64,000 bases of DNA from Gammaproteobacteria bacterium (lineage in GTDB: Bacteria > Pseudomonadota > Gammaproteobacteria > Ga0077536), in assembly GCA_009692265.1 (NCBI GenBank), contig SHZM01000001.1, positions 19,363 to 83,362 on the forward strand. The letters run 5' to 3'. This document shows positions 3,135 to 21,069 of the stretch, one piece after another. Within the stretch, counting starts at the first letter, position 1; each line of letters starts with the position of its first letter. The notes under the pieces are model-generated. The model was given only the letters and a program-made list of their open reading frames with translations. It made no database searches and had not been told where the DNA came from. A program made the position numbers and the translations under genes.

Positions 3135-3144
3135 GGAATCGCAA

Positions 3145-3564
3145 ATGCCCAACCCCGGTTTCGCCTCCGTTCAAGTCGGGGATTCATTGCCAGCCTTGAC
3201 CGCAAAGCCACTCACTCGCCAAACCCTCGCGGTGTACTGCGGTGCTTCCGGCGATCACAATCCGGTACATGTGGACAGTGATTTCGCGCGCGCGGCCGGG
3301 CTCGATGACGTGATCGCGCACGGCATGCTCATCATGAGCTATATGAGTCGCACCTTGACCGACTGGGTGCCGCAGAACCGCGTCCGTAGCTTCAATACGC
3401 GCTTCATGGCGATCACCCACATCGGCGATGAAATCACTTGCACCGCGAAGGTCGTTGAAAAATTCACCCGCGACGCAGAGAACCTTGTCCGCATCGCGAT
3501 CGCGGCAGCGGATCAACGCGGGGAAGTGAAGACACAGGGCGAGGCATTGATCGCACTGCCCTGA
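3145..3564 (+). CDS. MaoC family dehydratase (HadB-like catalytic subunit)
   Basis: 139 aa. Has the hot-dog motif GDHNPVHVDSDFARAAG...IAHGM. It starts 10 nt after the previous CDS, so the two look like a coupled pair. Confidence 0.75.
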   Translation: MPNPGFASVQVGDSLPALTAKPLTRQTLAVYCGASGDHNPVHVDSDFARAAGLDDVIAHGMLIMSYMSRTLTDWVPQNRVRSFNTRFMAITHIGDEITCTAKVVEKFTRDAENLVRIAIAAADQRGEVKTQGEALIALP

Positions 3565-3588
3565 GGGAATAACAGCGGGAGGGATCGC

Positions 3589-4428: not shown

Positions 4429-7334
4429 GTGTTGAAACCAGGTGTGCCGCTAACAGTGTTGTAGTCCGCGTACACCACCACGTAATTGCCCTGGCCGAGA
4501 TCCGCGATTGCGGGGCGATACTCGGTGCCATCAGTGCTCGACAGCAGCTTGCGTTGGCCATCGATCGCGACTCCGGCCGAGGTGTGTTCACGGATGTAGA
4601 CATCCGTGGTCGTGCCGACGTTTGGGATCACATCGTAGTTGTCGTTGTACCAGGTCACGACGAAGCCGCCGGTGGAGAGCGCCGTCACGTCTGGCTGGTA
4701 TTGACCGCCGATGGTCGACTCGTTGACCAGGAACTCGCCGCCGAGCTTGGCACCCGCCGCGGTGAAGCGCTGCCCGATTACCGCCTGACCGCTGTTGTCG
4801 CTGGCATCATTACCATCCGACGGCCATACCACCACGAACGTGCCGTCCGCCAGCACCGCGACGTTCGACACGTACTCGCCATTGTTCGCAATACTCTGGT
4901 TTCCCACCGTGGTGGTGTTGACCAGGAAGGTGTCGCCAAAGGTCCCACCCGCCGCGTTGAAGATCCGGCCATACACGCCGTGGCCCGCGCCGTCGTTACC
5001 GCCCTCGTCGGACCATACGATGATGAGATTGCCGTTCGCGAACGCCGCTATATCCGGGGTGTACTGGTTGCCGGTTTGGGGGTTTACCGTGCCGAGAATA
5101 TTGCTAATCCGGGTCTCGACCGTGACCACGGCCCCCGCGTTGTCGTAACGCTTCAAGTAGATGTCGTGGCTGCTACCGTCCGGATTCGTGTTTGACGACC
5201 ACACCGCCGCAAAGCCGCCCGCGTAGCCCGCGACATTGGTGTGGAACTGGTTATTGCTGGTGAACGTGTTGACCAGGAAGTTCCCACCCTGCGCCACGCC
5301 GCTCGCGTTGTAGCGCTGACCATACGCGCCGTAGGACGAACCATCGTTCAGATTGTCCTGTCACGCGACGACATAGCCGCCATCGGAGAGGCTCGCGAGC
5401 TGCGGGTAGTTCTGAATTCCGTTGGTCAGACTATTGACCCGGAATTCAGCGCCTAGCGCGAGACCCTGCGCGGTAAAACGCTGGACGTAGACGCCTTCCT
5501 GATTGCCGTCCTGGTCATCCGAATTCCAGGCCACGACATAACTGCCATCCGTTAAGGTTGCCACCGTCGGATAGGTCTGTTCAGCTGGCGTGTACGTGGT
5601 GACCTGGCTCTCACCGTAGACTACCGGTGCGCCATCCAGTTCCTTGGTGATATTCACCGTCAAGGTGCTGGCATCGCTGACTCCGCCGTCGCCGTCGCTG
5701 ACCCGTAGGCCCAGGGTCCGGCTAGCCAGCGGACTGGACGATGAATTGCCATAACCCAGGCGTTGCAGCGGGGCCTCGACCGCATCCACCGTCGCATTCG
5801 CATTCAACGTGATCGTGAGGCTCGCGCCGTTGACCCCGCCGGCGATTGTGCCGATCGTCGTACCGCCAAAACTGACATTCGCGCCCGCCACCCCGATCTG
5901 GCCAAAGCCGTTGCCCTGATGGACTACGCCGAGTTGGTCGTCGGTATTATTCGCGCCCTGTACGAAGAACAACTGCACCTGGCCGCCGTCGAAGTTCGCC
6001 GAATCCAGATCCGCGACGCTGACCGCGGAATCGAGCACTTGCAGGCTCGCGTTGACCAGGTTCTCGCCGAAGGTGACCACCCCGGCGAAGTCCCCGACGT
6101 CTGGGTTGGCTTGACGGGGTAGTTCGGCGGCAGTGCCGAACAATTGCTGGAAGATGCCTGCCGCAGAGCCGTCCTGCGGTTGATCAGAGCGCCACACCAC
6201 CACATAGTTATCGCTGCCGATGTGCGCGATCGCGGGCTCGTATTGAGCCCCGGAGGGCGTCCCCGTATCGGCCTTAAGTTGGCCACCCAGCGCGTTCCCG
6301 CTGGCGTCATATTCGCGAACGTAGACGTCGGCGGTGGTGCCTACCCCTTGAACCACGCCGTAGTTATCGTTGTACCAGGTGACAACAAAGCCGCCATTCG
6401 CCAAGGCTTCCACATCGGGCTGGTACTGGCCGCCGGTCGTCGATTCATTGACCCGAAATTCGCCGCCATCTAGCGCACCGGCTGCCGTATAACGCTGACC
6501 GTAGACCCCGGCACTGGACCCGTCTTGGTTATCGGAGCGCCAGACCACGACAAATCCGCCACCGGTGAGAAGCGCGACCTTCGGTTCGTACTGGGGACCC
6601 GTGACGAATGTATTGACGCGGAATTCGTTGACCCCGCCGGTGAGGATGGGCGTCCCCGTGGCGTCATAGCGCTGGGCGTAGACGCCATCGGTCCCGCTAT
6701 CTTGGGACTGCGATCGCCACACCACCACAAAGCTGCCGTCTGCGGCGGTTGCTACATCGGATTCAGTTTGGTAGTTGGCGAGGGTGGTATTAACCCGGAA
6801 TTCGTTGAGGCCATTGGTGAGCACCTGGACACCGGCATTGGTGTAGCGCTGCGCGTAAATGCCGTAGGAGCTGCTGGCCGCGTCCTGGAAGGAACTCCAG
6901 GTAACGATGAAGCCGCCGTTGTACGCACTGATGGCCGGTTCGTACTGGGTACTGGCGGTGATGGTGTTGACTCTGAACTGACTGCCCTGGGGCAGCGCGT
7001 TGGCGTCGTAGGCTTGCGCGTAGACCCCGTAGGAACTGCCGTCATTCGCGACTTGATCGGTCCACGTAATGACGAAGCCGCCGTTTGAGCGCCCGGTGAT
7101 AGTCGGTAGATACTGCGTGCCACCTGCAGTGCTATTAACCCGAAACTCCGGGCCGGTGGCGATGCCGCTCACCGTAAAGCGCTGCGCGTAGATGCCGTAG
7201 CTACCATCCGGATCCTGAACCTGGGAGATCCAGGTCACCACATACCCGCCCCCTGAGAGCGCCGCAACCGCGGGGTCATATTGGTTGCTATTGAAATAGG
7301 TATTGACTTGGTCTTCGTTATAGACGGCAACCAT
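4122..7334 (-). pseudogene. Giant tandem-repeat (about 47-aa repeats, likely extracellular) protein gene. It is interrupted by an in-frame TGA at 5361..5363, and its 3' end is lost: the frame reads into antisense of the IPDC-like remnant below about 4400.
   Basis: ORFs 5361..7334 and 4122..5297 are in the same frame (7334-5297 = 2037 = 679x3). The TGA replaces the Trp of the repeat consensus GG(F/Y)VV(T/V/A)W. About 15 repeats fit EFRVN.T..GxQ..P.V..L..GGFVVxWxS...DGS..GVYAQRY. The final stretch below 4400 has no repeat signature. Confidence 0.7.
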
Positions 7335-7859
7335 GGCGATCTCCCTGAGTGTTAAAACGGCGTGCTGCGTTCAATCCGGCGCAGGCCAGTATGCAAACGG
7401 TTGGTGAAGGTGGCGTGACGAGCTTACGGGAGACATGCGCGCCCGTGACGGTAATGGGTCTCGTTTGCGACCGTGCCTGAAAGTTGGATAGCCTTAGTGA
7501 TCGAGTACGAGTCACTATTCCTCCAAATTATTGGTTCTTCGATTCCTCCGGAATGTTCACGCGAATAGCATTCCGGGCAGCAGCGAACGCCGCGAAGGCG
7601 GAGTTCCGCGATAACCTATGCAAGACCAACGCCAGTCCGAGCGGGACGGAATTTTTCACCGAAAATCATAGGGTTAGCGAGAGCCCGAAATTTGTTTCAA
7701 AACGAGTTGTAAAAATCATGGACACGGAAGCCTGCGGGCGGGTTTCATCGGTGATCGCAAGCGACGAGTTTTTTTAGACGCTTCAAAGGGTTGGTGAAAG
7801 ATGCTCGGCAATAGCGGGCATATTACCGAGTCTATGATTTTTACAAGGATGTGGGTGAA

Positions 7860-7906: not shown

Positions 7907-9325
7907 TTACTCCACCTCGTCATAAATAAACAATGGGCCTTCGAGCAAACGACCGAAGGGGCGATAGCGAAACACGCTGCTCGCGGCACGCGGATCCAGC
8001 AGGAGTGGAATTATCCTTCGGCTCGGTTGCGCCAGAGGTATTCGCAGGGTACCTGGGTCGAGCACAACCTTGCCTGCCCACGGTTGCCAAGGCGAAGCGG
8101 CCTCCTCGGGTGAAATCCCTTTTGGGAACACTCGTGTCTGCACGCTTCGTCGCTCCGCGCGCGAAATAGTTTCGAATTTGATCCCGTGTCGTGCCAACAC
8201 CGCGCCGAACAAATTCACATGCGCGTTGATGACATACGCAGGCGGCAGGACAACCAGATCTTCGATCACGCAGGCACGGTGATCGGCAAACTGCCTCTCG
8301 ACTAACTCTCCAGTCGCATGCCGACGTAGCGGTATGCTGAGTTCCGGCATGTTTACGTTCGGCACGAAACGCGCGTTTAACGGGAGTTCACTTGGCACCT
8401 CACCGGCCGCGAGCTTAAGGACTTCTCTGATTTGCACTGCGCGTTCACTCACACAGGCCAAAAACACCTGCAAACACAGACGCTGCTTATCGACTCGCAC
8501 GCCGATATTGCGGTAGGTCGGATAGTGGCCCGCTTTGGGTTCCATCGGCGTTTCGAGCAGGATAGTCAGCGGCCCGCGGATCCCCGCTTTATTGCGGAAC
8601 TTGCGGATCGTGAAGCCGCCATGGGTGAGCGGTTGAGTGAGCGAGGTAATCTCACGGATATAACGCTGGGCGCGTAAGCCGCGCTGCGTAACACCTGCGA
8701 TTAAGGCCGGAAGTAACGTGCTTTCCAGATAGCGGCGGTTCACCGCCGGAATTGCCGGTGTATTCGCCACATCGAACTGCGCTTCGAAATCCGTCAAGTA
8801 ACCTTCGCGACCTAAAGTCTTGCTCTTGTAACTCGCCGACTCATGCGCATCGAGGATGACATCGGGCGCGAAATCGATCACCGCCGCATCGAGTGCGCAA
8901 CTCTCGGGCTGCGTCAGTAAGACATAGTCGCGATTGAGATTGACGTCGTTGCCGTTCTTGCTTGAATCGAGATCACGGCCGTCGGGGTTCGCGTTGGGAA
9001 TGAAGATCAGTTCCAGATCCTCAAGCAGTTCGCGCCGCTCGCCGAGCAGCACGTCGCGTGCGAGAAATAATAGCGCTTCACAGCCCGCCGCTTCCGAAGC
9101 GCCATGTTGCGAGCCGACCAGCATGACTCGCAGTTTCGCGGTGCGAAGCGGCTGCGCGCAAATCAAGGCCTGGAGTGGACGCCCCTGGGCTGAGCGCCCA
9201 AGGGTTTGCAGACGGGCAACCTTCGGCGCAAGCGCCGCGAGTTGTGCCAAATAGGCCGCGACGTCAGCCGAACTCGAATACGCCTGGAAACGCTGCGTTT
9301 CGAGCGGCGTCGGCGGTAGCTTCAC
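7907..9325 (-). CDS. M14 family zinc metallocarboxypeptidase (paralog 1, no signal peptide)
   Basis: 472 aa. M14 motifs present: GSQHGASEAAG (HxxE zinc site), IPNANPDGR, NLNRDY, DAHESAS, LETPME. The GTG start at 9325 overlaps the stop of the upstream paralog (GTGA). Confidence 0.75.
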   Translation of the reverse strand: MKLPPTPLETQRFQAYSSSADVAAYLAQLAALAPKVARLQTLGRSAQGRPLQALICAQPLRTAKLRVMLVGSQHGASEAAGCEALLFLARDVLLGERRELLEDLELIFIPNANPDGRDLDSSKNGNDVNLNRDYVLLTQPESCALDAAVIDFAPDVILDAHESASYKSKTLGREGYLTDFEAQFDVANTPAIPAVNRRYLESTLLPALIAGVTQRGLRAQRYIREITSLTQPLTHGGFTIRKFRNKAGIRGPLTILLETPMEPKAGHYPTYRNIGVRVDKQRLCLQVFLACVSERAVQIREVLKLAAGEVPSELPLNARFVPNVNMPELSIPLRRHATGELVERQFADHRACVIEDLVVLPPAYVINAHVNLFGAVLARHGIKFETISRAERRSVQTRVFPKGISPEEAASPWQPWAGKVVLDPGTLRIPLAQPSRRIIPLLLDPRAASSVFRYRPFGRLLEGPLFIYDEVE

Positions 9326-10884
9326 CGGAGGCGACGCGTCGCGCCTTTGTATGTGCGATAGACGAAGAAATCTTCCTCCGGTTGCACCAGCGCGGAATAC
9401 TCTGGGTAGCGAAAGATGCTGCTGGTCGAGCGCGGATCCAGCAATAACGCCGCGTAGCGTCCGTTGGGTTGCGTGAGATCGATGAACACACCGCCGGGTT
9501 CGATCTCGAGTGCGCGACGGTTTTCTGAAGTCATCTTCACTTGGTCGAGAATATTTGGCCGGCTCTCAAAACGCGCGGCGATGACGTCCGCGCTGGTGGG
9601 CTGGGTCAGACTCCAAAAACTAATGCCATGTCGTTCGAGCACATCGCGCAGCTTACCCACGTGTTGAGTGATGACCAGCATCGGCGGATAGGGGATCCGG
9701 TCGCCGGTCACCAGCTTTCGATGATCACGAAATTCAATCGACTCCAATTCGCGGGTATCGAGGCGGCGCATCGGGATTGAGACCTTTGGGTGCTCAGGAT
9801 CGACCACATAACCCGCGAACAAGGTAAGCGGCTCTTTATGCAAACCGCTGCGTGCCTCAACCACGCGGGTTGCGAGGATCGCCCGCCCCTCGTGCATCGA
9901 TTTAAGGAAGGTGCGAATGCACAGCAGCTGCCGCTCGACCCGCACCACGATATTGCGATACGTCGGGTAGGTGTCTTCGCGTGAATCGAGTTTGGTCTCC
10001 ACCAGAAACGAGATCGCGCCGCTCATGCCCGCGGTATTGCGGAAATTGCGCAGGGTCAGACCGCCGTGGGTGATCGGCTGTTTAAGGCTGATGATTTCGC
10101 CGATATAGCGATGCGCGGGCAATCCACCAGCGGTGACCCGTGCAATGAGTTCGGGCAACAAGGTCTGTAGCGCGTAGTCGCGCACCACGGCTGGCACGGA
10201 CGGGTTATTGCTGAATTCAAACTGCGCATCGAAATCGGTTAGGTAACCATCGCGCGCCAGAGTCTTGCGTTTCAGGACTGCGGATTCGTGCGAGTCCAGC
10301 ACGGCAGCGGGTCGATATTTTTCGAGCATGTCCTTGAGGATGCGGGTCTCCGGTTGCGACAGCAGGACAAAGTCGGTGTTGATATTGATGCCGTTGGCGT
10401 TCGCGCGCTTCTTATTATCGCGACCGTCGGGGTTCGCGTTCGGAATCAAAATCACATCGACATCGTCCAACAGCGGACGTAAGTCGCCCGCCACGAGTTC
10501 GCGCGCGATCACTAACAACGCTTCGCCACCTGCCGGCTCGGCGGCACCATGTTGTGAGCCGATCACCACGAGCTTCGGGCGTTTAAGTTCTTTCGATCGC
10601 TTTGTCTTTAAGACCAGGGCCTCGAGCACGCGTCCCTGTACTGACTTGCCGAGGTCGTCTTTACGCGCGAGGGTGGGGTAGTGCGCGACGATGGTGTCCA
10701 AGTACGTGGTGATCTCGGCGGAGGTGCTGATTCGAGAGTTTGCGTTCAGCTCGAGCGGCGTGAGCAGCGGGGGTGCGGCGTTCAGCTGTGAGGTGAACAG
10801 GAGTACCGTGACTAACGAAGGTAGGGTGCCGATTCTTGTGAGGTTGATCATGGTCGGTGTTTTACTCGAATTAATGGGTTTCAT
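9322..10884 (-). CDS. M14 family zinc metallocarboxypeptidase (paralog 2, with signal peptide)
   Basis: Paralog of the previous gene with the same motifs (GSQHGAAEPAGGEA, IPNANPDGRD, NTDFV, DSHESA, FLVETK). The N-terminus MKPINSSKTPTMINLTRIGTLPSLVTVLLFTSQLNAAP is signal-like. An alternative start at 10851 (MINLTR) is possible. The longer track ORF reaching 10968 reads through the REP element and was rejected. Confidence 0.7.
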   Translation of the reverse strand: MKPINSSKTPTMINLTRIGTLPSLVTVLLFTSQLNAAPPLLTPLELNANSRISTSAEITTYLDTIVAHYPTLARKDDLGKSVQGRVLEALVLKTKRSKELKRPKLVVIGSQHGAAEPAGGEALLVIARELVAGDLRPLLDDVDVILIPNANPDGRDNKKRANANGININTDFVLLSQPETRILKDMLEKYRPAAVLDSHESAVLKRKTLARDGYLTDFDAQFEFSNNPSVPAVVRDYALQTLLPELIARVTAGGLPAHRYIGEIISLKQPITHGGLTLRNFRNTAGMSGAISFLVETKLDSREDTYPTYRNIVVRVERQLLCIRTFLKSMHEGRAILATRVVEARSGLHKEPLTLFAGYVVDPEHPKVSIPMRRLDTRELESIEFRDHRKLVTGDRIPYPPMLVITQHVGKLRDVLERHGISFWSLTQPTSADVIAARFESRPNILDQVKMTSENRRALEIEPGGVFIDLTQPNGRYAALLLDPRSTSSIFRYPEYSALVQPEEDFFVYRTYKGATRRLR

Positions 10885-10893
10885 CGACCGAAT

Positions 10894-10962
10894 AAGAAAA
10901 TCCCCCTCAGTCCCCCTTTGACAAAGGGGTCGGCGCGCAGCGGCGGGGGACTTAGCGCGCAG
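10894..10962 (+). repeat. REP/MITE-like element (copy B, forward orientation)
   Basis: AAGAAAATCCCCCTCAGTCCCCCTTTGACAAAGGGGTCGGCGCGCAGCGGCGGGGGAC. It carries the same core as copies A and C. It sits between the bclA stop and the M14 paralog-2 start. Confidence 0.75.
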
Positions 10963-10967
10963 ATTCA

Positions 10968-12542
10968 CTACCCCGCCCGCAATCTGAACCGCTGAATCTT
11001 GCCGGTCGCCGTTTTCGGAAGCTCTGGGACAAATTCAAACCAGCGCGGGTACTTGTGTGGCGCAAGCTGCGTTTTCACATGCGCCTTCAATGCTGCTTCC
11101 AATTTCGGCACTCCGTGGCCCTTGCTCTTCAATACGACAAATGCTTTCGGTTTGATCAATCCCTCCGCGTCCGCCATGCCGACCACCGCCGCTTCGAGCA
11201 CGGCTGGGTGTGACATCAGCGCGGCTTCGACTTCGAACGGTGAAACGTATTGGCCGCTGACTTTGAGCATGTCGTCAGAGCGCCCACCGTAGGTGTAGTA
11301 GCCCTCCGCGTCGACCGTGTATTTATCACCCGCGCGGGTCCATGCGCCCATAAAGGTTTCACGCGATTTCTCGCGACTGTTCCAATACATCACGGCCGTG
11401 CTCGGACCGTTGATCTGGAGTTCGCCCAGACCAGGTCCCGTAATTTCTTGGCCTTGCTCATCGCACAGCCGGATTTGATAACCCGGGACGGGTTTACCCG
11501 TCGTACCGTAACGCACGTCGCCAGGCCGGTTCGATAAAAAAATATGCAACATCTCGGTCGAACCAATGCCGTCGAGGATGTCCACTCCAAAGTGGGCGGT
11601 AAAGCGTCGCCCGACGTCGGCGGGCAGCGCTTCACCCGCTGAGGTGCAGATCCGTAACGCGACTGTCGAGCGCTCGGGTAACCTTGGGCTCGCGAGCATC
11701 GCGGCATAGAGCGTCGGTACCCCGTAGAAAATCGACGGCTGCAAGTCGACCAGGCGTTTGAACACCGCCTCCGGGGTTGGCCGCTCGGCCATCAAGATCG
11801 CAGTGGCGCCAACCGCCAACGGGAACGTCAGGCTATTGCCTAGGCCATAGGCGAAAAATAATTTCGCGGCCGAGAACACCACATCCTGTTCAGTAATCCC
11901 GAGAATAGGACGTGCATACAGCTCAGCGGTGTGAAGCAAGCTCGAATGCACATGCACCGTACCCTTCGGGGGGCCGGTCGAACCGGAGGAGTACAGCCAG
12001 AAGCACACCTCACCCGCCGTGGTGTCGACCGGCTCGGCGGTGGGCTCGGCGGCCGCCATTAACTGGCCTAACACGGGATATCCATGTGCACCGGCCGTGG
12101 CAATAACATGCTTCAGCGATCGTGCTTCCGCGAGCGCCGGTGCAAACGTTTCCAGCAACGGTGCGGAAACGAACAGGGCTTTCGCGCAACTGTCGTCGAG
12201 CATGAAGCGGTAATCATCGCTGGTTAGCAGGGTATTCACCGCGATCGGTACGATCCCGGCTTTGATAGCGCCCAGGAACACGCTTGGAAAATCGATCGTG
12301 TCGTGTAGCGCGACCATAACCCGATCTTCGGGTTCAAGACCAAGCGCGCGCAGCGCATTGGCGGCACGATTCACGCGCGCGACTAGTTCGCCGTAAGAAT
12401 ACCGGCCGGCGTCATCGATATATGCGATTTTTTCGGCGCGGCCCGCCCGTAGGTTTCGTTCCAGGAGGTCATGCGCGGCGTTATAGCGACGCGGAATTTC
12501 AATCAACGGTGGCGAGACCGTGTGGTCGGCGCGAGACAACAT
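10968..12542 (-). CDS. bclA: Benzoate-CoA ligase family (aromatic acid:CoA ligase)
   Basis: 524 aa adenylate-forming enzyme with YSSGSTGPPKG, GTTGKP and a C-terminal ...KTATGKIQR. Length and motifs match the benzoate/4-hydroxybenzoate-CoA ligase family. It neighbours boxR/boxC/boxB. Confidence 0.8.
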   Translation of the reverse strand: MLSRADHTVSPPLIEIPRRYNAAHDLLERNLRAGRAEKIAYIDDAGRYSYGELVARVNRAANALRALGLEPEDRVMVALHDTIDFPSVFLGAIKAGIVPIAVNTLLTSDDYRFMLDDSCAKALFVSAPLLETFAPALAEARSLKHVIATAGAHGYPVLGQLMAAAEPTAEPVDTTAGEVCFWLYSSGSTGPPKGTVHVHSSLLHTAELYARPILGITEQDVVFSAAKLFFAYGLGNSLTFPLAVGATAILMAERPTPEAVFKRLVDLQPSIFYGVPTLYAAMLASPRLPERSTVALRICTSAGEALPADVGRRFTAHFGVDILDGIGSTEMLHIFLSNRPGDVRYGTTGKPVPGYQIRLCDEQGQEITGPGLGELQINGPSTAVMYWNSREKSRETFMGAWTRAGDKYTVDAEGYYTYGGRSDDMLKVSGQYVSPFEVEAALMSHPAVLEAAVVGMADAEGLIKPKAFVVLKSKGHGVPKLEAALKAHVKTQLAPHKYPRWFEFVPELPKTATGKIQRFRLRAG

Positions 12543-12559
12543 CAGGACTGGGTCGACCG

Positions 12560-13033
12560 TTAAAGCCGACGTAGCACTGCGGTCCAGACGTTCGCAACTC
12601 CGGGCAGGGTCGCGATGTCGGTACTACCGCTTAGCTCCGAGACCTCAGGCTGCCCATACCGACCCTGGTCCAGGCGATAACGAGTGACGCTGCGATCGGT
12701 GGGGTGCACCAGCCAATATTCGCGCACGCCGTGGCCTTCGTAGAGTGCGCGCTTGACGACCTGATCATGCGCGGCGGTGAACGGCGAGAGGATCTCCACA
12801 ATCCAATCCGATTGCACGACGGTATCGATTTCGTCGTCTGCTTCGTGGTGGCGAGGAAGTCGAATATCTAGCGGTGCGACGAATAAGCGGCTCGGCCCAT
12901 CACGTAATGCTTGATCAAGCTGACCAGCCATCGCGTAGGCGATCCCATCAATCAATTCGTAGCGGCGATTATCAGACCATGTGCAGTAATCGCCGTAGGT
13001 ATGTCGTTCATCATCGCGACGTGCAAGGCCCAT
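12560..13033 (-). CDS. Uma2 family (DUF820) restriction-endonuclease-fold protein
   Basis: The core YGDY..W...RRYELIDG...PLDIRL...DWIVEILSP...D..VK...Y...GV.EYWLV is typical of Uma2. The chosen start is the ATG at 13033; the track ORF extends to 13129. Some usual segments look shortened, so it may be degenerate. Confidence 0.55.
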   Translation of the reverse strand: MGLARRDDERHTYGDYCTWSDNRRYELIDGIAYAMAGQLDQALRDGPSRLFVAPLDIRLPRHHEADDEIDTVVQSDWIVEILSPFTAAHDQVVKRALYEGHGVREYWLVHPTDRSVTRYRLDQGRYGQPEVSELSGSTDIATLPGVANVWTAVLRRL

Positions 13034-13074
13034 ACTCGGCTCCGTATTCGTGTTTGCAAGTGCCCTAGTCAATC

Positions 13075-13551
13075 TTAAGCTGCGACGGCGTGCTCCGCAC
13101 GAACCAGCGCAAACCACGGGCCAATCCATGCTGCCGCAAATTCTTCCGGCATCAAACCCGCGGAAGCATCGTGTTCCAGCACTTCGCCGACTCTGCGCGC
13201 ACCTAACTTGGTCAGGATCTGATCGAAGCGACGGCCACCGAAGCAGTAAGTCTGCGCGTGCGATGAGTCCCCCAGCGAGACCAGGCCGTAGCGGATCCCA
13301 GTGAGATTGGGTCTGTCCTTGACTAGCGACTCGTAGAGCTTCTTGGCGTTGGCCGGCACATCGCCGTAGCCATAGGTGGACATACAGACTAAGTAGATCG
13401 CCGCTGGCTCGAACACCTTCGCGTCGAGCTCGTCCATTTGCAGGATCTCGCCTTGCGCACCCGCTTGTTGGAGATTGAAGTGGGCTTCTTCGGCGACGTA
13501 TTGGGTGTTGCCAGTGGTCGTGCCGACTAGGATCCGGACGGTAATCGCCAT
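13075..13551 (-). CDS. Flavodoxin, MioC-like FMN-binding protein
   Basis: ATG at 13551 gives MAITVRILVGTTTGNTQYVAEEA...STYGYGDVP.N, which aligns with E. coli MioC. The longer track ORF reaching 13635 was rejected because it reads into an AT-rich intergenic region. Confidence 0.75.
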   Translation of the reverse strand: MAITVRILVGTTTGNTQYVAEEAHFNLQQAGAQGEILQMDELDAKVFEPAAIYLVCMSTYGYGDVPANAKKLYESLVKDRPNLTGIRYGLVSLGDSSHAQTYCFGGRRFDQILTKLGARRVGEVLEHDASAGLMPEEFAAAWIGPWFALVRAEHAVAA

Positions 13552-13593
13552 GGGCTGTTGCTCCGAAAGGGTTGAAACGAAGGTAGAAAGTGA

Positions 13594-13637
13594 ATTATAT
13601 TTCATAAAATATTCTTCACAAGTATTATATTTCATAA
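13594..13637. promoter_or_regulatory. Candidate operator/promoter in the divergent flavodoxin-boxR intergenic region. Two perfect 14-bp direct repeats ATTATATTTCATAA (13594..13607 and 13624..13637) are spaced 30 bp apart.
   Basis: Seen directly in the sequence. This 93-bp AT-rich spacer between the divergent starts at 13551 and 13645 is the only AT-rich spot in the area. Confidence 0.4.
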
Positions 13638-13644
13638 GACTCCG

Positions 13645-14556
13645 ATGCCGCTTTCAGCCCAACCCAAGACTCTTGGTGCCGACTCCCTAGCGGAAGACGA
13701 CGCGGCGGCGCTCGCAGGTCTGGGCACTCGGATCCGTCAAGCCCGGGCGCGCCGTGGCATGACTCGCCGTGCATTAGCCCTGCATTCCGAGGTTTCAGAG
13801 CGCTACCTCGCGCACTTGGAAGGGGGTGAGGGAAATGCCTCGTTTCTGGTGCTGCGGCGAGTGGCGTTGGCGTTGAAATTGCCGCTTGCGGAGCTGGTCG
13901 ACGAGCGGCCCCCGGCCTCGATCGAATGGGCGCTGCTCGAACAGCTGCTAAAAGATCAACCAACCGCGAGCTTGCAGCGCATTCGCCATCAATTGCAGCG
14001 CGAAGTCGTTCATTCCGAGCACCTACGGGGTGCGCGGGTGGCGTTAATTGGCCTGCGCGGCGCGGGCAAATCGACCTTAGGCGCGCAAGTCGCAGCACAT
14101 CTTGATCGGCCGTTTATCGAACTCGATCGCGAAATAGAAGTAAGCGCCGGAGCGTCGTTAGAGGAGATTTTTTTGCTGTACGGGCAAGCCGGTTATCGTC
14201 GGCACGAGATGCGCTGCCTGCAGCGACTGATCGAAGAGACTCCACGCTGCGTGATCGCGACCGGCGGGAGCATTGTCTCGGAACCCGCAACCTATTCGCT
14301 GTTGCTCACGGCGTGCACGACCGTGTGGCTGAAAGCCTCCCCCGAAGAACATATGGCGCGCGTGGTCGCTCAAGGCGATCTGCGACCGATGAGTGGGAAC
14401 GCGGAGGCGATGGACGATCTGCGGCACATTTTGCTCGAACGCGCGGACCGTTACGCCCAGGCGGATTTCACCTTGGATACCACCGGCAAATCTCTTACTA
14501 CCACTTTCACTGCGTTGCTCGATCTGCTCAGCACGCCCCCCATCGCCAAGGAGTGA
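13645..14556 (+). CDS. boxR: BoxR/BzdR-type transcriptional regulator (N-terminal HTH-XRE fused to a shikimate-kinase-like effector domain)
   Basis: 303 aa. N-terminal XRE HTH (IRQARARRGMTRRALA...SERYLAHLEGG). C-terminal shikimate-kinase fold with P-loop (LIGLRGAGKSTLG...IATGGSIV). This architecture is specific to BzdR/BoxR, and the gene sits directly upstream of boxC-boxB. Confidence 0.8.
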   Translation: MPLSAQPKTLGADSLAEDDAAALAGLGTRIRQARARRGMTRRALALHSEVSERYLAHLEGGEGNASFLVLRRVALALKLPLAELVDERPPASIEWALLEQLLKDQPTASLQRIRHQLQREVVHSEHLRGARVALIGLRGAGKSTLGAQVAAHLDRPFIELDREIEVSAGASLEEIFLLYGQAGYRRHEMRCLQRLIEETPRCVIATGGSIVSEPATYSLLLTACTTVWLKASPEEHMARVVAQGDLRPMSGNAEAMDDLRHILLERADRYAQADFTLDTTGKSLTTTFTALLDLLSTPPIAKE

Positions 14557-14560
14557 CCCA

Positions 14561-16240
14561 ATGAGTGCTGCCGCCGTATCTCCAACAAGTCCTGAATATG
14601 TCACCTTCGACCGACACCCTGATCACTATGCGCATTGGCGCCTGAGCAGTGACGGCGCGGTCGCGACGTTGGCGCTGGATGTGGCCGAGGATAAGGGGCT
14701 GAAACCGGGTTATAAGCTCAAGCTGAATTCCTACGATCTCGGGGTCGACATCGAACTTTACGACGCGCTGCAACGCATTCGCTTCGAACATCCCCAAGTG
14801 AAAGTAGTGGTGATCACCAGCGCCAAGGACCGCATGTTCTGCTCGGGCGCGAATATCTACATGCTTGGCCTGTCGAGTCACGCGTGGAAAGTGAATTTCT
14901 GCAAGTTCACGAATGAAACGCGCAACGGAATCGAAGATTCGTCGCGCCACAGTGGGCTGAAATTCCTCGCCGCCGTAAACGGCACGGTCGCGGGCGGCGG
15001 CTACGAACTCGCGCTCGCCTGCGATGAGATCCTGATGGTTGACGATCGCTCTTCCACCGTGAGTTTGCCGGAAGTACCGTTACTCGGCGTACTGCCGGGC
15101 ACTGGTGGCTTAACGCGGATCATCGATAAACGTAGGGTCCGGCGCGATCTCGCGGACTTCTTCTGTACGACCAGTGAAGGCGTGCGTGGTGATCGGGCCA
15201 AGCTGTGGGGCTTGGTTGATCACATCGCTAAACCCCAGCAGTTCAAGGACGCCACTGCCGCGCACTTACAGCGCTTGATCGACGCGAGTACGCGACCAGC
15301 GGCGAGTGCGGGTATTGCGCTAACCCCGCTCGCACGGGTCATCGACGACGCCGGCATTCATTATTCACACGTCGACGTGCGCCTGGATCGCACGCAACGC
15401 ACCGCCACGATCATCGTCACTGCGCCCACCACCGCTGCTGTGCTGTCGCTCGCGGAGATCCACTCGCGCGCTGCTGCCTGGTGGCCACTGGCGATGGCGC
15501 GCGAACTCGATGACGCGATCCTGCTCCTGCGTTTGAATGAACTCGATATCGGCACCTGGATTTTGCAGACTCGCGGAGATCCCTTTGCGGTCCTCGCACT
15601 CGATGCGACCCTCGAAGCACACCAGACCGATTGGTTCGTGCATGAAACCATCGGCATGCTGCGAAGAACCTTCGCGCGGCTTGATGTGTCATCACGGACC
15701 CTGTACGCGTTGCTCGACGAAGGCTCGTGCTTCACGGGCACCTTGGCTGAACTCGCCCTCGCGGCCGATCGCAGCTTCATGTTGCAATGGCCGGACGAGC
15801 CCGAACGAGCGCCGCACCTTACGTTGTCGCACGTGAATTTTGGGCTGTATCCGATGGTGAATTATCAGAGTCGGATACAGACGCGATTCTGTAGTGACCC
15901 CGTGCCGGTCGCGCGCGTACACGCGAAAATCGGCACGGCGTTGGACGCCGCCGCCGCGCTTGAACTCGGCCTCGTCACGTTTGCACCCGACGATCTCGAT
16001 TGGGCCGACGAGGTGCGCCTCGCGCTTGAGGAGCGCACGAGTTTGTCGCCGGACGCGCTCACCGGCATGGAAGCTTCGTTGCGCTTCGGCGGTGCCGAGA
16101 CCTTAGAAACTCGGATATTTAGTCGGCTGTCGGCGTGGCAGAACTGGATCTTCATTCGCCCGAACGCTGTCGGCGAGCACGGCGCGCTGAAGGTCTTCGG
16201 CACCGGCCGCAAGGCGCAATTTAATTGGGAGCGGGTTTAA
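14561..16240 (+). CDS. boxC: 2,3-epoxybenzoyl-CoA dihydrolase BoxC (crotonase superfamily)
   Basis: ATG at 14561 preceded by AAGGAG. About 559 aa with an enoyl-CoA hydratase fold (AAVNGTVAGGGYELALACDEI), which matches the size and type of BoxC. It lies between boxR and boxB. The upstream extension in the 615-aa track ORF overlaps boxR and was rejected. Confidence 0.8.
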   Translation: MSAAAVSPTSPEYVTFDRHPDHYAHWRLSSDGAVATLALDVAEDKGLKPGYKLKLNSYDLGVDIELYDALQRIRFEHPQVKVVVITSAKDRMFCSGANIYMLGLSSHAWKVNFCKFTNETRNGIEDSSRHSGLKFLAAVNGTVAGGGYELALACDEILMVDDRSSTVSLPEVPLLGVLPGTGGLTRIIDKRRVRRDLADFFCTTSEGVRGDRAKLWGLVDHIAKPQQFKDATAAHLQRLIDASTRPAASAGIALTPLARVIDDAGIHYSHVDVRLDRTQRTATIIVTAPTTAAVLSLAEIHSRAAAWWPLAMARELDDAILLLRLNELDIGTWILQTRGDPFAVLALDATLEAHQTDWFVHETIGMLRRTFARLDVSSRTLYALLDEGSCFTGTLAELALAADRSFMLQWPDEPERAPHLTLSHVNFGLYPMVNYQSRIQTRFCSDPVPVARVHAKIGTALDAAAALELGLVTFAPDDLDWADEVRLALEERTSLSPDALTGMEASLRFGGAETLETRIFSRLSAWQNWIFIRPNAVGEHGALKVFGTGRKAQFNWERV

Positions 16241-16259
16241 CCCCCTCTGAAGAAACCCG

Positions 16260-17681
16260 ATGAGCATCAACTACAGCGAACGCATTCCGAATAATGTGAA
16301 CCTCGCGAGCGATCGCACCTTGCAACGTGCGCTGGAACACTGGCAGCCACGCTTTCTTGAGTGGTGGCAGGAAATGGGTCCGACCGACTTTCAGGGCAAC
16401 GAAGTCTATTTGCGCACCGCTGTCGGCGTGGATGTCGAAGGCTGGGCGAGTTACGGCGAAGTGAAAATGCCCGACTATCGCTGGGGCATTTTTCTCGCCG
16501 ATGCGGTCCCGGAGCGCACTATCGGGTTCGGCGACATGCTCGGACAACCAGTGTGGCAACAGGTCCCGGGTGAATTTCGCTCGCAGTTTCGACGCCTGAT
16601 CGTGACTCAGGGCGACACCGAGCCCGCCTCGGTCGAACAGCAGCGGCTACTCGGCCTGACCTGCCCATCGCTCTACGATTTACGCAATCTATTTCAGGTG
16701 AATGTCGAGGAAGGTCGGCATTTATGGGCGATGGTGTATCTGCTGCACGCCTACTTCGGTCGCGATGGACGCGAAGAAGCGGAAGAACTGTTAGCACGCC
16801 ATTCGGGGGATGCCGACAAGCCGAGAATATTAGGCACCTTCAACGAACCGATCTCGGACTGGCTGTCGTTTTTCTGTTTTACGTATTTCACTGATCGCGA
16901 CGGCAAGTATCAGCTTAAGAGTCTCGCGGAATCGGCCTTCGATCCGCTGGCGCGAACTTGTCGCTTCATGTTGACCGAGGAAGCGCACCATATGTTTGTC
17001 GGCGAAACCGGCCTGAGTCGGGTTATCCGCCGGACATTGGAATTGATCAAGGAACTCGGCACCGACGACTCGGCCGCGATTCAGCACGCGGGCGGGATGG
17101 ACTTTCCGTTATTACAACGATATCTGAATTTTTGGTTCACCTCCTCGCTAGATCTGTTTGGCTCGGAGGTTTCCTCGAACGCCGCGACCACCTTCGCGAA
17201 CGGGATCAAGGGGCGGCCGGATGAAACCTTGTACACCGATCATCACTGCCTTGAAACGGCCTTTGAATTAGCGATCCCCGATGACAATGGCGGAGCGAAA
17301 CTCGACTCCGTGCCGATGCGCAACGCGATGAACGAAGTCGCGCGCCAGGCCTACATCAAAGATTGCGAAATGGGCTTGAAGCGCTGGAACATGATGATCA
17401 AGCGCGCCGGGGTGGCGGTCGAACTTGCGCTACCGTCGAGCCGCTTTCGCCGCGGCATCGGCGCGTGGTATGGCGTTCCGACCGATCTCCAAGGTAATCG
17501 TATTAGCCCCGAAGCCTACCGTCACGGCCTCACCCAGTGGCTACCCGGCGAGCAAGATCGTATCCACGTGCATAGCCTGATGCGGTGTGTTACCACTCCA
17601 GGAAAGATGGCCGGGTGGATCGCGCCGCCCGACCGTGGCGTGAATAATCTGCCGGTGGCTTATGAGTATGTGCGGTTATGA
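16260..17681 (+). CDS. boxB: Benzoyl-CoA 2,3-epoxidase (oxygenase) subunit BoxB, diiron enzyme
   Basis: 473 aa, matching the length and sequence character of BoxB (EEGRHLWAMVYLL...EEAHHMFVGE diiron ligands). It follows boxC by 19 nt. Confidence 0.85.
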   Translation: MSINYSERIPNNVNLASDRTLQRALEHWQPRFLEWWQEMGPTDFQGNEVYLRTAVGVDVEGWASYGEVKMPDYRWGIFLADAVPERTIGFGDMLGQPVWQQVPGEFRSQFRRLIVTQGDTEPASVEQQRLLGLTCPSLYDLRNLFQVNVEEGRHLWAMVYLLHAYFGRDGREEAEELLARHSGDADKPRILGTFNEPISDWLSFFCFTYFTDRDGKYQLKSLAESAFDPLARTCRFMLTEEAHHMFVGETGLSRVIRRTLELIKELGTDDSAAIQHAGGMDFPLLQRYLNFWFTSSLDLFGSEVSSNAATTFANGIKGRPDETLYTDHHCLETAFELAIPDDNGGAKLDSVPMRNAMNEVARQAYIKDCEMGLKRWNMMIKRAGVAVELALPSSRFRRGIGAWYGVPTDLQGNRISPEAYRHGLTQWLPGEQDRIHVHSLMRCVTTPGKMAGWIAPPDRGVNNLPVAYEYVRL

Positions 17682-17690
17682 ACCAACCTG

Positions 17691-18200
17691 CTATGTAGAG
17701 GCATCAAGCTGAAAAACGATGATCGGGATGCCGCGCTCGCCCGCTCTATCGCGGTAATTTTCGAATCCCGGATAGATCGAAAGCGCTTTGCGCCATAGAC
17801 GATTGTGCTCCTCGCCCAAGGCGACTTCAGTCGCGTGGTAGCGACCGTGCACACCATAAAAATCTAACTCGACTTCGGGGTTCGCGCGAACATTGAATAG
17901 CCAGCCGGGATGCGTGGTTCGTCCCCAATTCGCGGCCAACACGACGATGTCGTCGCCATCCTGGATCCCAATTAATGGCACCTTCCGGTGCTCACTACTG
18001 CGCGCACCAACCATCGACAAACCTACGACGGGAAGTCCGACTACCGCGCGTGGAATTGACCAATGTTGTCGCGTCGCGGCCATCAACACGCGATCGACGT
18101 GATGTAGTACCTTGGCGAGGGCCGCCGCGCCGCGAGGCGAAGCTGGGAAAGATTGGAATGAGCGCTGCCAATCGTGTTGCCGTACGGCTATTTGCGTCAT
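17691..18200 (-). CDS. Deazaflavin (F420H2)-dependent oxidoreductase, nitroreductase family (DUF385/FDOR-type split barrel)
   Basis: ATG at 18200 gives 169 aa. It contains the family signature HPGWLFNVRANPEVELDF...YH.TEV...E.NRLW.....YPGFENY......IPIIVFQLD. The 218-aa track ORF extends upstream without support. Confidence 0.7.
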   Translation of the reverse strand: MTQIAVRQHDWQRSFQSFPASPRGAAALAKVLHHVDRVLMAATRQHWSIPRAVVGLPVVGLSMVGARSSEHRKVPLIGIQDGDDIVVLAANWGRTTHPGWLFNVRANPEVELDFYGVHGRYHATEVALGEEHNRLWRKALSIYPGFENYRDRAGERGIPIIVFQLDAST

Positions 18201-18371
18201 GTTGCACCTCCGTGCGCTTTTTGTAATCGAAATCCTAGATCTTGGGCTAGACTGCCGCGCGGACCGTGACGAGAAACGGTGCGGCGCAAGTCCGTGCAGT
18301 AAAAGTAGCAGCAGGGTTTCGATCGGTCCGCAGGCTCGGTCACACAATTTAACTTTCTAGAGGAGATTTTC

Positions 18372-19238
18372 ATGTCGCAGGTCGCATTTAAGCTCGGTGT
18401 CCTCAAACTTGGCTGCATTGGCGCGGCACCCTTGCTCGATTTATTGCTCGACGAGCGTGCGGATCGCGACGATCTGGAAGTTCGTGCGTACACCTGCGGT
18501 GCGAAATTAGATGCAGCCTCCTGTGCCGACCCGACCCGCGAGATCCTGGCGTATCGCCCACAGTTGGTCTTGTTAGTCAGCCCCAATGCTTCGCTCGCCG
18601 GGCCAACGAATTCGCGAAAGCTTCTCGGTGAAGCGGGGATCCCGATCATCACATTGTCCGATGGCCCGTCTAAAAAAGCCTTCTTCAAGAAAAACGACGA
18701 GGGCAAACAGGTTAAACAAGTCCCGCCCGGTCAGGGTTTCATGATCTTTCCGGCCGATTCGATGATCGGCGCACGCCGCGAATTTCTCGATCCGACCGAG
18801 ATGTCGTTGTTTAACGCCGATGTGATCAAAGTGCTCGCCGCGAGTGGTGTACTGCGGCTGGTTCAAACTGAACTCGATAGCGTGATTGAAGCGCTCAAAG
18901 CGGGAACTACGCCAACTTATCCCAACGTGACGGTCACGCCGGAGAAGGCAGTCGCCGCCGGCGGATTCGGCAATCCGTATGCGGCAGCGAAAGCGTATGC
19001 CGCACTCTCGATCGCGGAAGCCGTCTCCGCGGTGACCACCGATGGTTGTTTTAAGGAACAAGACCCACAACGCTACATTCCGATGGTCGCGGCCGGCCAT
19101 GAAATGATGCGGATGGCGGCGCGGTTGGCCGATGAAGCGCGGGAGCTGGAGAAAGGTGCGAATAGTCTATTGCGCACCCCGCATGGTGCTGATGGCTCCG
19201 TGCGCAGTAAGCGTGGGTTGGCGGATAAACCTGAATAA
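18372..19238 (+). CDS. F420-dependent methylenetetrahydromethanopterin dehydrogenase (Mtd) family protein, i.e. an archaeal-type Mtd homolog
   Basis: 288 aa with very strong similarity to methanogen Mtd along its whole length: KLGCIGAAPLLDLLLDERADR, MIGARREFLDPTEM, NADVIKVLAASGVLRLVQ, NPYAAAKA, GCFKEQDPQRYIPMVAAGHEMMRMAARLADEARELEKGANSLLRTPHG. Confidence 0.75.
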   Translation: MSQVAFKLGVLKLGCIGAAPLLDLLLDERADRDDLEVRAYTCGAKLDAASCADPTREILAYRPQLVLLVSPNASLAGPTNSRKLLGEAGIPIITLSDGPSKKAFFKKNDEGKQVKQVPPGQGFMIFPADSMIGARREFLDPTEMSLFNADVIKVLAASGVLRLVQTELDSVIEALKAGTTPTYPNVTVTPEKAVAAGGFGNPYAAAKAYAALSIAEAVSAVTTDGCFKEQDPQRYIPMVAAGHEMMRMAARLADEARELEKGANSLLRTPHGADGSVRSKRGLADKPE

Positions 19239-19253
19239 ACGCGTCGAGAGTTC

Positions 19254-19350
19254 AAGAAAATCCCCCTCAATCCCCCTTTTTCGAAGGGGGAGGACTACCG
19301 ACTCACCCCCTTTGAAAAAGGGGGTCATCGCGCAGCGGCGGGGATTTTTC
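19254..19350 (+). repeat. REP/MITE-like element, full-length copy C with about 9-bp terminal inverted repeats (AAAATCCCC ... GGGGATTTT) and two internal hairpins. It lies between convergent genes and is a probable bidirectional terminator.
   Basis: AAGAAAATCCCCCTCAATCCCCCTTTTTCGAAGGGGGAGG...TCACCCCCTTTGAAAAAGGGGGTCATCGCGCAGCGGCGGGGATTTTTC. It shares both modules with copies A and B. It starts 16 nt after the mtd-like stop and abuts the aldolase stop at 19350. Confidence 0.75.
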
Positions 19351-20099
19351 TATTTCAATGCCTCGCGCACCGCACTCGCACCCTGTCGCAGAAACAGTGT
19401 ATCCACACCGCACGCGATGAAAGTAAAGCCCGCCGCGATGCGCGGAATGACCCACTCCGGCGAGGTTGCGAAAAAACCCAACGTTAGGTTCGCGGCCAAA
19501 GTAACATCCGCGACCCGCTTAATCGCGGCCACGACTTCGGGATGGTCGAGTTGCCCCAGCCGGCCCATGCTCGCGGATAAATCGTAGGGGCCGACAAACA
19601 CCGAATCGAGCCCGGGTACCTGCACGATCGCCTCGATGTTATGAACAGCGTCGATGTGCTCGGCTTGTACAATCACGGCGGTCTCGTCATTCGCACGCGC
19701 GACGTATTCGGCAACCGCATAACCATACCCGTTCGCACGCGCAACCCCGACCCCGCGCCGTCCTTGCGGTGGAAACTTCGCGCCGGCCACGATCGCCGCC
19801 GCCTGCTCCGCAGTATTCACCTGCGGGACGATTATCCCAGCGGCACCGGCATCGAACGCACGCTTGATCCCGATCTCGTCGTGATTCGGCAAACGAACCA
19901 CGCACGGCAGGCCGTGCGCAGCGATGATCAGGTGTTGCAGTTCAGCCGGTCCGACCGGCGCGTGTTCGGTTTCCAGGAATAACCAATCGAAGCCGCATCC
20001 CGCTAAAACTTCTATCGCTTCGGGCGATGCGAGGCTTGCGATTGTGCCGATCAATACCTCGCGTTGTCGCAGTCGTGCGCGAAATGAAAGCTCACTCAT
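19350..20099 (-). CDS. HpcH/HpaI aldolase family protein (2-keto-3-deoxy-acid aldolase type)
   Basis: 249 aa with the TIM-barrel aldolase pattern (DWLFLETEHAP...AAGIIVPQVNTAEQA..IV...KFPPQGRRG). Its start overlaps the upstream gene's stop (ATGA). Confidence 0.7.
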   Translation of the reverse strand: MSELSFRARLRQREVLIGTIASLASPEAIEVLAGCGFDWLFLETEHAPVGPAELQHLIIAAHGLPCVVRLPNHDEIGIKRAFDAGAAGIIVPQVNTAEQAAAIVAGAKFPPQGRRGVGVARANGYGYAVAEYVARANDETAVIVQAEHIDAVHNIEAIVQVPGLDSVFVGPYDLSASMGRLGQLDHPEVVAAIKRVADVTLAANLTLGFFATSPEWVIPRIAAGFTFIACGVDTLFLRQGASAVREALK

Positions 20100-20899
20100 G
20101 CCTCGACCTTAAATGCTTTCGTCCACTCCTTGCCTTGCGAGTCGATGACATCGGCTTTCAGTTCGCCGCCCTTATGTGGCTTGAAAAAGAACCGAAAGCT
20201 CGGGTCCTCGCTGATCGAGATCCCAGTTTCCGCCGTCATAATCAGCGCATCGTTGAAATACAGTTTCCACGATTTCACGAAATGGGCCGGCCGAATCAAC
20301 TGTGTTTTCTGATCCTTTTGCATACCAGTGATGTTCGGATGCGAGAGCATCAACTGCCCGATGATGGCGTCCTCCGGCGTGCGCTCACCGACGGTGCGGA
20401 AATTGATTTGACCGATGCGTTCCATCGCCGCCTGCAGATCCGAGCCCAACGGTGCGGAACACCCGCCTTGGGCCTTCACGAAGTTACTCACGATGTGATG
20501 CTCGCCCGAGTTCAACACTGCAATCGCACGCACGTTAGTGTAATTGTCGATCCGGATCCTGAGCGCCAAATCGGCGCGTCCGATTTCGGGAGTAAGGTTA
20601 AATACGCCGGCTAGCGGCTCGGGATTATTATCGACAACGAGGTAGATTTTTTCGATGAAGCGTTCCGCGGTTTGCGGAAACTGAGCGCGAATGGTGACTG
20701 GGGTGAACGCCGCGTCTTCCGCGCGATAAGGCGTTTTCATTTCGATGACCGTGGTGTCTTCGATTAACACCTTGTCGGCGAAGTACTTGGGTTTGAGGAA
20801 AGTAGCCCACACATCGACCGGGGATTGCTCGGCGGCGATGACCGATTGCGCTATCAGCCCGCCGAGGAATATCCCTAAAACCGGGAACCTAACCATCAT
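20096..20899 (-). CDS. SoxY-SoxZ fusion (SoxYZ-like sulfur-carrier) periplasmic protein
   Basis: ATG at 20899 after GGAG. Signal peptide MMVRFPVLGIFLGGLIAQSVIAAEQ. The SoxY-like half ends in the carrier motif VKAQGGCS. The SoxZ-like half is IRPAHFVKSWKLYFNDALIMTAE...FRFFFKP. This resembles quinoprotein-dehydrogenase-associated SoxYZ-like carriers. Confidence 0.55.
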   Translation of the reverse strand: MMVRFPVLGIFLGGLIAQSVIAAEQSPVDVWATFLKPKYFADKVLIEDTTVIEMKTPYRAEDAAFTPVTIRAQFPQTAERFIEKIYLVVDNNPEPLAGVFNLTPEIGRADLALRIRIDNYTNVRAIAVLNSGEHHIVSNFVKAQGGCSAPLGSDLQAAMERIGQINFRTVGERTPEDAIIGQLMLSHPNITGMQKDQKTQLIRPAHFVKSWKLYFNDALIMTAETGISISEDPSFRFFFKPHKGGELKADVIDSQGKEWTKAFKVEA

Positions 20900-21069
20900 G
20901 AAATACTCCAGCAATTGACGTACCGCGGAATGCCAAGCATCGATTTTGACCGCTGACCGAGGCGATAATTCACTCCGGCTCTACCTTTCAAGGTCTCGTT
21001 CGCAGGGATTGTATCGACTGCGTCGGCTCAAGACCAAGACGTTCGTCCAAATCTCACTGGTGGCGAGAA

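Follow-up and report, generated by a model that had tools for sequence, protein, structure and literature searches.

A boxA-less benzoyl-CoA (box) gene cluster with a linked flavodoxin as candidate electron donor to a distinct clade of the epoxidase BoxB

We analyzed an aerobic benzoyl-coenzyme A (box) gene module in a 64-kb window (the whole stretch of DNA considered here) of a 116-kb contig from a metagenome-assembled genome (MAG) labelled Gammaproteobacteria bacterium. Genes were identified from a listing of open reading frames (ORFs) together with profile searches (NCBIfam and Pfam) judged against curated cut-offs, and their positions and scores are collected in Table 1. A benzoate-CoA ligase (bclA) and a flavodoxin (fld) lie on one strand, and a BoxR-type repressor, the dihydrolase BoxC, and the diiron epoxidase BoxB on the other; beyond boxB follow an F420H2-dependent oxidoreductase (FDOR) and an F420-type methylene-tetrahydromethanopterin dehydrogenase (Mtd). 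These genes had been called in an earlier reading made from the letters and ORFs only (the sequence-only reading), and the profile searches bore out each call at its position, the BoxB and BoxC assignments included. The window BoxB aligns with that of Aromatoleum (Azoarcus) evansii (Protein Data Bank, PDB, entry 3PER) at E = 4e-190 and 61% identity, and its diiron ligands are all kept, with E120, E150, H153, D211, E240, and H243 invariant. Judged from gene order and spacer sequence, the region is best explained as an intact representative of a second, widespread kind of box cluster (type II below), with two divergent operons, fld-(uma2)-bclA and boxR-boxC-boxB, which would share one BoxR-controlled promoter region; in the operon divergent from boxR, no conserved pathway gene follows bclA.

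Table 1. Features of the box module and its surroundings (window coordinates; scores in bits)
Feature	Position	Strand	Evidence
Two M14 carboxypeptidase-like genes	7907-10968	-	PF00246 matches both; directly downstream of the ligase gene
Benzoate-CoA ligase (bclA)	10968-12542	-	TIGR02262, 811 vs. cut-off 375
Uma2-family gene (PD-(D/E)XK-like)	12560-13033; ORF to 13129	-	PF05685, 67 vs. cut-off 27
Flavodoxin (fld), 158 aa	13075-13551	-	PF00258, 85 vs. cut-off 25; first gene of the divergent operon
Two BoxR-type operator boxes (putative)	13590-13635		gTGaAtTATAtTtCAT at 13590-13605 and AagtAtTATAtTtCAT at 13620-13635; spacing 30 bp; no strand
BoxR/BzdR-type repressor, XRE helix-turn-helix plus shikimate-kinase-like domain	13645-14556	+	PRK08154, 392 vs. 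204; PF01381 and PF01202
BoxC, 2,3-epoxybenzoyl-CoA dihydrolase	14561-16240	+	TIGR03222, 908 vs. cut-off 712
BoxB, diiron benzoyl-CoA 2,3-epoxidase, type II clade	16260-17681	+	TIGR03225, 731 vs. cut-off 499
F420H2-dependent oxidoreductase (FDOR)	17691-18200	-	TIGR00026, 77 vs. cut-off 46; PF04075; convergent with boxB
F420-type Mtd	18372-19238	+	NF002162, 333 vs. cut-off 297

BoxA, which carries two [4Fe-4S] clusters and a reductase module of the ferredoxin-NADP+ reductase (FNR) type that uses NADPH, is the usual supplier of electrons to BoxB. Searches of the whole 64 kb by tblastn with five verified BoxA queries (verification by TIGR03224, 703 bits), with a verified BoxD (NF008868, 710 bits), and for an adrenodoxin-reductase-like gene returned nothing below E = 0.1. 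Neither tblastn nor Pfam scans found an aldehyde dehydrogenase or any other reductase in the window, in agreement with the sequence-only reading, which had reported boxA and boxD as absent from it. The other window genes are core housekeeping genes in the Pfam scans (the rib operon, glyA, mfd, rpsA, aroA, gyrA, purL, eno, and others), and no boxD, lactonase, or PnbB/DUF4863 gene lies near the cluster in this genome. When BoxA was compared with a large protein collection, no contig of the window's lineage appeared among the best 120 of at least 8000 matches, a result that weighs little because only those 120 were considered.

The module otherwise has much in common with canonical box clusters, such as those of A. 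evansii and of Burkholderiales (e.g., plasmid pBRH01 of Mycetohabitans rhizoxinica): the ligase, BoxR, BoxC, the divergent two-operon layout, and a BoxB with identical diiron ligands are shared. BoxR in the canonical system has palindromic operators of the TGCA type. It differs in that fld is the first gene opposite boxR and that BoxB falls into a separate clade. The canonical M. rhizoxinica order is abhydrolase-lig-DUF4863<>boxR-boxC-boxB-boxA, from which the clusters termed type II below differ exactly by the lack of boxA and the presence of fld.

We surveyed boxB neighborhoods in 80 species-representative genomes, which together with close relatives of the window gave 88 comparison loci (L001 to L088); counts refer to the species representatives only. 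Genes at these loci were called with a codon-usage log-odds caller trained on box genes, all counts were made by direct tblastn, and BoxB classes were assigned by tblastn mapping and by identity to the window BoxB and 3PER. A neighbor-joining tree recovers three BoxB clades. Type I holds the A. evansii enzyme and every boxA-adjacent copy (L081, L086, and second copies in L007, L011, L019, L020, and L026). Type II holds the window BoxB and ~70 others from Burkholderiales, other Gammaproteobacteria, Alphaproteobacteria, and Acidobacteriota, the Burkholderiales isolates including Polaromonas sp. A23, Caenimonas terrae, and two Ramlibacter strains; ligases in type II clusters of other genomes are 63-78% identical to that of the window. 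Clade-specific residues of BoxB include W292, S295, F312, and S393 (window numbering). Type III is myxococcotal (L075-L080, L082, L083, L085, and L088) and ~62% identical to both other types; its loci contain no boxA, flavodoxin, or recognizable reductase within 10 kb. In type III loci boxR is divergent and stands immediately upstream of boxC. A plasmid collection yielded only type I-like BoxB at no more than 60% identity and was used solely as a canonical reference.

The clades differ in the genes that accompany them. A flavodoxin gene stands next to boxR in 47 of the 51 type II-only loci with at least 3.3 kb of readable upstream sequence, whereas none of 12 type I or III loci has one (Fisher p = 7e-10). 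Conversely, boxA is present in none of the 41 type II-only loci with both flanks readable but in four of six loci that carry a type I copy (Fisher p = 8e-5). In two loci, L007 and L011, the flavodoxin-bearing cluster has two boxB copies, one of type II and, between it and boxC, one of type I followed by boxA; on gene content, each of the two oxygenases appears to be encoded along with a separate partner system. BoxD (NF008868) is encoded inside 7 of 63 type II loci, and some type II clusters also carry a lactonase-type hydrolase and transporters; the presence of BoxD inside some of these clusters implies that type II systems are used with the normal downstream chemistry. As a separate observation, the operon order boxC-boxB(type I)-boxA-boxB(type II) recurs in L007 (7100-11425), L011, L019 (7334-11410), L020, and L026, and the type I boxB of L007 seems frameshifted near its N terminus, which may be an assembly error.

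The box-linked flavodoxins are defined by their box-cluster context and are mostly 45-80% identical to one another. The window protein scores 121.5 bits against PRK08105 (cut-off 160) and 102.5 bits against MioC (cut-off 158), below both equivalog cut-offs, and the solved structures closest to it are those of a flavodoxin (2M6R), MioC, PA3435, and cindoxin. Across 42 orthologues, the motifs that bind flavin mononucleotide (FMN), GTTTGNT, STYGxGDVP, and LGD, are at least 95% conserved, and the proteins are acidic, with a median isoelectric point of 4.4. Fusions to BoxB or to a reductase were not found: the 102 homologues are stand-alone proteins of ~156 aa, a few fragments aside. Pairwise distances among flavodoxins track those of BoxB with r = 0.85, compared with 0.90 for BoxC and 0.89 for BoxR, so that by this measure the divergence of the flavodoxin appears to have kept pace with that of BoxB about as well as have BoxC and BoxR. 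The flavodoxin is under purifying selection: against three relatives, and with dS saturated, the ratio of nonsynonymous to synonymous substitution (dN/dS) is 0.04-0.17 for fld, compared with 0.06-0.09 and 0.08-0.13 for boxB and boxC, respectively.

The spacer between fld and boxR contains two boxes that resemble BoxR operators. ATTATATTTCAT occurs exactly twice in the 64 kb, both times in this spacer and 30 bp apart, against 0.09 occurrences expected, and the only three sigma-70-like matches in 10800-19400 all fall at 13572-13628, overlapping the boxes. The published BoxR/BzdR operator motif is ATGCAcTATAgTGCAT (PMC6449761), which the window boxes match at 12-13 of 16 positions. Palindromes resembling TGCAxTATAxTGCA, which correspond to this published motif, are found in many fld-boxR spacers of other type II clusters. 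The flavodoxin is the first gene behind this shared promoter region.

Some type II clusters additionally encode a candidate reductase for the flavodoxin. Of the 47 type II loci whose sequence could be read downstream of boxB, 10 have after boxB, and mostly directly after it, a homologue of adrenodoxin reductase and FprA of ~415 aa; it matches PDB entries 1CJC at E = 7e-63 and 1LQT (Mycobacterium tuberculosis FprA) at E = 8e-59. In the neighbor-joining tree, the loci that bear it are mainly deeper-branching alphaproteobacterial and acidobacterial members of type II. Enzymes of this class reduce small redox carrier proteins; an adrenodoxin-reductase-like gene together with the flavodoxin would complete a chain from NADPH through flavin adenine dinucleotide (FAD) to FMN. 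Apart from this, a DUF6306 gene (~135 aa, PF19825) occurs after type II boxB in seven Burkholderiales loci, L021 (11404-11811), L022, L025, L028, L029, L030, and L074, directly so in five of the seven; these loci do not carry the adrenodoxin-reductase-like gene, and DUF6306 could be a further accessory of the type II system.

Based on these comparisons, we propose that in the type II box system BoxB is reduced directly by the flavodoxin, which takes the place of BoxA and is itself fed by a separate FAD reductase, a proposal we consider probable. Benzoate would be activated by the ligase, and the resulting benzoyl-CoA would free the two operator boxes from BoxR. BoxB would then epoxidize benzoyl-CoA, consuming O2 and two electrons, and BoxC would split the epoxide, giving 3,4-dehydroadipyl-CoA semialdehyde and formate, with BoxD and the beta-oxidation-like steps presumably encoded elsewhere. 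Electrons would pass from NAD(P)H to an FAD reductase, to the FMN flavodoxin, and to the diiron center of BoxB, with no involvement of BoxA. The reductase would be the adrenodoxin-reductase/FprA-like enzyme in those genomes that encode it right after boxB; here it would be unlinked and probably a housekeeping flavodoxin reductase. What the analysis shows directly is which genes are present, how the BoxB clades divide, the statistics of gene neighborhoods, the operator-like boxes, and purifying selection; we infer the flavodoxin-to-BoxB step, which enzyme serves as reductase here, and a genome-wide lack of boxA. The flavodoxin had been named as one possible unconventional donor in the sequence-only reading, and the survey supports that idea well: the gene is nearly constant in one BoxB clade whose type II-only loci never have boxA nearby, and some of them supply an adrenodoxin-reductase-like gene as well. 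The wider proposition, that type II BoxB is BoxA-independent and flavodoxin-dependent throughout and that the aerobic benzoyl-CoA pathway exists in the environment to a large extent, possibly for the most part, in this form (among Burkholderiales, other Gammaproteobacteria, Alphaproteobacteria, and Acidobacteriota), seems to us about evenly balanced.

Several observations weigh against a flavodoxin-fed BoxB and limit our confidence in it to a moderate level. Pfam scans found no reductase of any kind within 10 kb of boxB in the type III loci or in the type I loci L084 and L087, so an unlinked BoxB partner is clearly possible; in L019 a type II boxB directly follows boxA, with no flavodoxin within 10 kb; and the BoxA search covered 64 kb of this MAG and up to 10 kb on either side of boxB elsewhere. 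These three points help to hold our confidence down. Additionally, the flavodoxin is missing from four type II loci (L044, L046, L064, and L070), the window has no linked reductase for it, and the putative operator boxes are degenerate, with half-sites TGAA/TTCA instead of TGCA. The survey also took the 80 matches most similar to the query out of at least 600 BoxB matches, and type I is consequently under-sampled. Some of these findings would suit a different explanation, in which a BoxA encoded elsewhere still reduces BoxB and the flavodoxin is either an accessory (in diiron assembly, repair, or re-reduction, as NrdI/YfaE are for ribonucleotide reductase) or unrelated to BoxB. Such an arrangement would fit the loci that lack a nearby partner reductase as well as L019, and L007 and L011 show that boxA and the flavodoxin can occur together. 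We nonetheless consider it unlikely: boxA is confined to loci with a type I copy in the counts given above, and every boxA that adjoins a type II boxB comes with a type I boxB. The recurrent adrenodoxin-reductase-like gene suits a supply chain for a flavodoxin and not the needs of BoxA, and the lack of a window-lineage contig among the best 120 BoxA homologues points the same way, as weak evidence.

It is also conceivable that the cluster is what is left of an incomplete or decaying box pathway and supports no benzoate degradation. A comparative study from 2024 recorded box contexts without boxA in Polaromonas, Ramlibacter, Ferrovibrio, and others and classed them as incomplete and probably nonfunctional (PMC10803450), and boxA, boxD, and the lower-pathway genes are indeed absent from the 64 kb, where the Uma2 gene moreover interrupts the fld-ligase operon. 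A remnant is nevertheless improbable, as is the fragmented duplicate or incomplete pathway envisaged in the sequence-only reading. The five genes are full length and score above curated cut-offs (the flavodoxin that of PF00258, although it stays below the equivalog cut-offs of PRK08105 and MioC), the diiron ligands of BoxB are intact, and dN/dS against three relatives is 0.04-0.24, dN lying far below dS. The five-gene architecture is conserved across phyla, in Pseudomonadota and Acidobacteriota, and some type II clusters carry BoxD, the lactonase-type hydrolase, and transporters. A further candidate raised earlier, a deazaflavin route that would supply BoxB via the adjacent FDOR and/or the F420-dependent Mtd, draws on the position of both genes immediately downstream of boxB; it found no support on comparison and is very improbable. 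By tblastn, FDOR is absent from all 88 comparison loci, the closest relatives included, and Mtd neighbors boxB in this lineage alone, 70 bp to ~8.5 kb away from it, and never at the type II clusters of other taxa. Furthermore, FDORs are known to reduce small molecules with F420H2 rather than to serve as protein electron carriers.

The proposed flavodoxin-fed chain has a functional parallel in the P450cin system, in which electrons pass from NADPH through cindoxin reductase (FAD) and cindoxin (FMN) to P450cin, and in which the flavodoxin reductase of Escherichia coli can stand in for the dedicated enzyme (PMC9687028). The box flavodoxin, which is related to cindoxin, MioC, and the FMN domain of cytochrome P450 reductase, is likewise a small FMN protein that stands alone, and is the proposed one-electron shuttle to an oxygenase. 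In those type II loci that encode a reductase, this is a separate NADPH-dependent FAD enzyme, for which a housekeeping flavodoxin reductase could substitute. The systems differ in that P450cin is a heme P450, whereas BoxB has a diiron center and works on a CoA thioester, and in that the window has no linked reductase; the resemblance is functional and implies no family membership. MioC and YqcA of E. coli share their fold, their length of ~150 aa, and their FMN motifs with the box flavodoxin and are its best PDB and NCBIfam matches, but the box protein stays below their equivalog cut-offs (121 vs. 160 and 102 vs. 158). On the side of the oxygenase, PaaABC(D)E and the multicomponent diiron monooxygenases belong to the same diiron superfamily as BoxB, and the PaaA-family structure 4MUD is the sole PDB match of the window BoxB besides 3PER. 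PaaABC(D)E likewise epoxidizes an aromatic CoA thioester. The reductases of these systems (PaaE, MmoC) are of the FNR type and have a [2Fe-2S] domain, and we know of no PaaABC(D)E-type or multicomponent diiron monooxygenase that uses a flavodoxin. If confirmed, a flavodoxin-fed type II BoxB would, to our knowledge, be without precedent among bacterial diiron oxygenases of aromatic rings in drawing its electrons from an FMN protein, and the BoxB family would gain a second, modular electron supply open to direct comparison with BoxA.

Neither the pathway nor its enzymes are new; the exchange of partner and its consistency across a clade appear to be undescribed. We found no flavodoxin or adrenodoxin-reductase-type enzyme linked to BoxB in the open-access literature, and a mention in a subscription journal is possible. 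A 2019 study of the BoxR regulon describes boxCBA operons without mentioning a flavodoxin, and its supplements show no annotation for the gene next to boxR in Polaromonas (PMC6449761).

Where oxygen is low or fluctuates, benzoate and many aromatic pollutants are processed mainly through the box pathway, and pathway-completeness calls (KEGG modules and marker-gene surveys) demand boxA. Clusters now called incomplete may well work. If the flavodoxin does stand in for BoxA, genomes and MAGs scored as incomplete for want of boxA would be competent benzoate degraders, and many organisms, among them cultured Polaromonas, Ramlibacter, and Caenimonas strains and many MAGs, would have been mis-scored as unable to use the box pathway.

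Every close relative of the window that we examined (L001-L006, L008-L010, L014, and L053) has the arrangement ligase-fld<>boxR-boxC-boxB with no boxA within 10 kb. These loci come from several metagenomes and MAGs, and their BoxB proteins are 80-86% identical to that of the window; downstream of boxB, gene content varies among them. The pair of M14 genes is conserved after the ligase gene, with a start/stop overlap, in L001-L006, L008-L010, and L014, and is a lineage-specific extension of the operon. Speculatively, the pair might free benzoate from N-benzoyl amino acids.

The Uma2 gene has a different distribution, with no tblastn match in any of the 88 comparison loci. The gap between fld and the ligase gene, ~35-100 bp in the relatives, is where it is inserted in the window, and since Uma2 and FDOR are both absent from the relatives, they are insertions private to this genome. 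The sequence-only reading had described Uma2 as embedded in the module; it is indeed located inside, but as a genome-specific insertion that gives no indication of taking part in the pathway, and we rejected such a role. Its match to PF05685 covers only model positions 94-167 of 172, the N-terminal half being divergent or shortened, and the gene may be a degraded copy. The sequence around DTVVQSDWIVEILSP reads as if an internal segment had been lost.

Mtd is 77-82% conserved in the relatives, and a PNPOx-like gene lies at 2087-2623 on the minus strand, with FDOR nearby. From their annotation, the Mtd, FDOR, and PNPOx-like genes together suggest that the lineage uses F420, which would be unusual for Gammaproteobacteria. 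Farther along the window, at 19350-20914 on the minus strand, a gene for an HpcH/HpaI-family aldolase overlaps by 4 nt a gene for a fused SoxYZ-like carrier (TIGR04557, "quinoprotein dehydrogenase-associated"), and this pair is conserved in several relatives. In the region corresponding to window positions 2600-7400, the PNPOx-like gene and the M14 pair are separated in the relatives by two dehydratase genes of the MaoC/FAS1 type; in their place the window has two large genes without family assignment, at 4122-5297 (a weak match to a lipoprotein model only) and 5361-7334.

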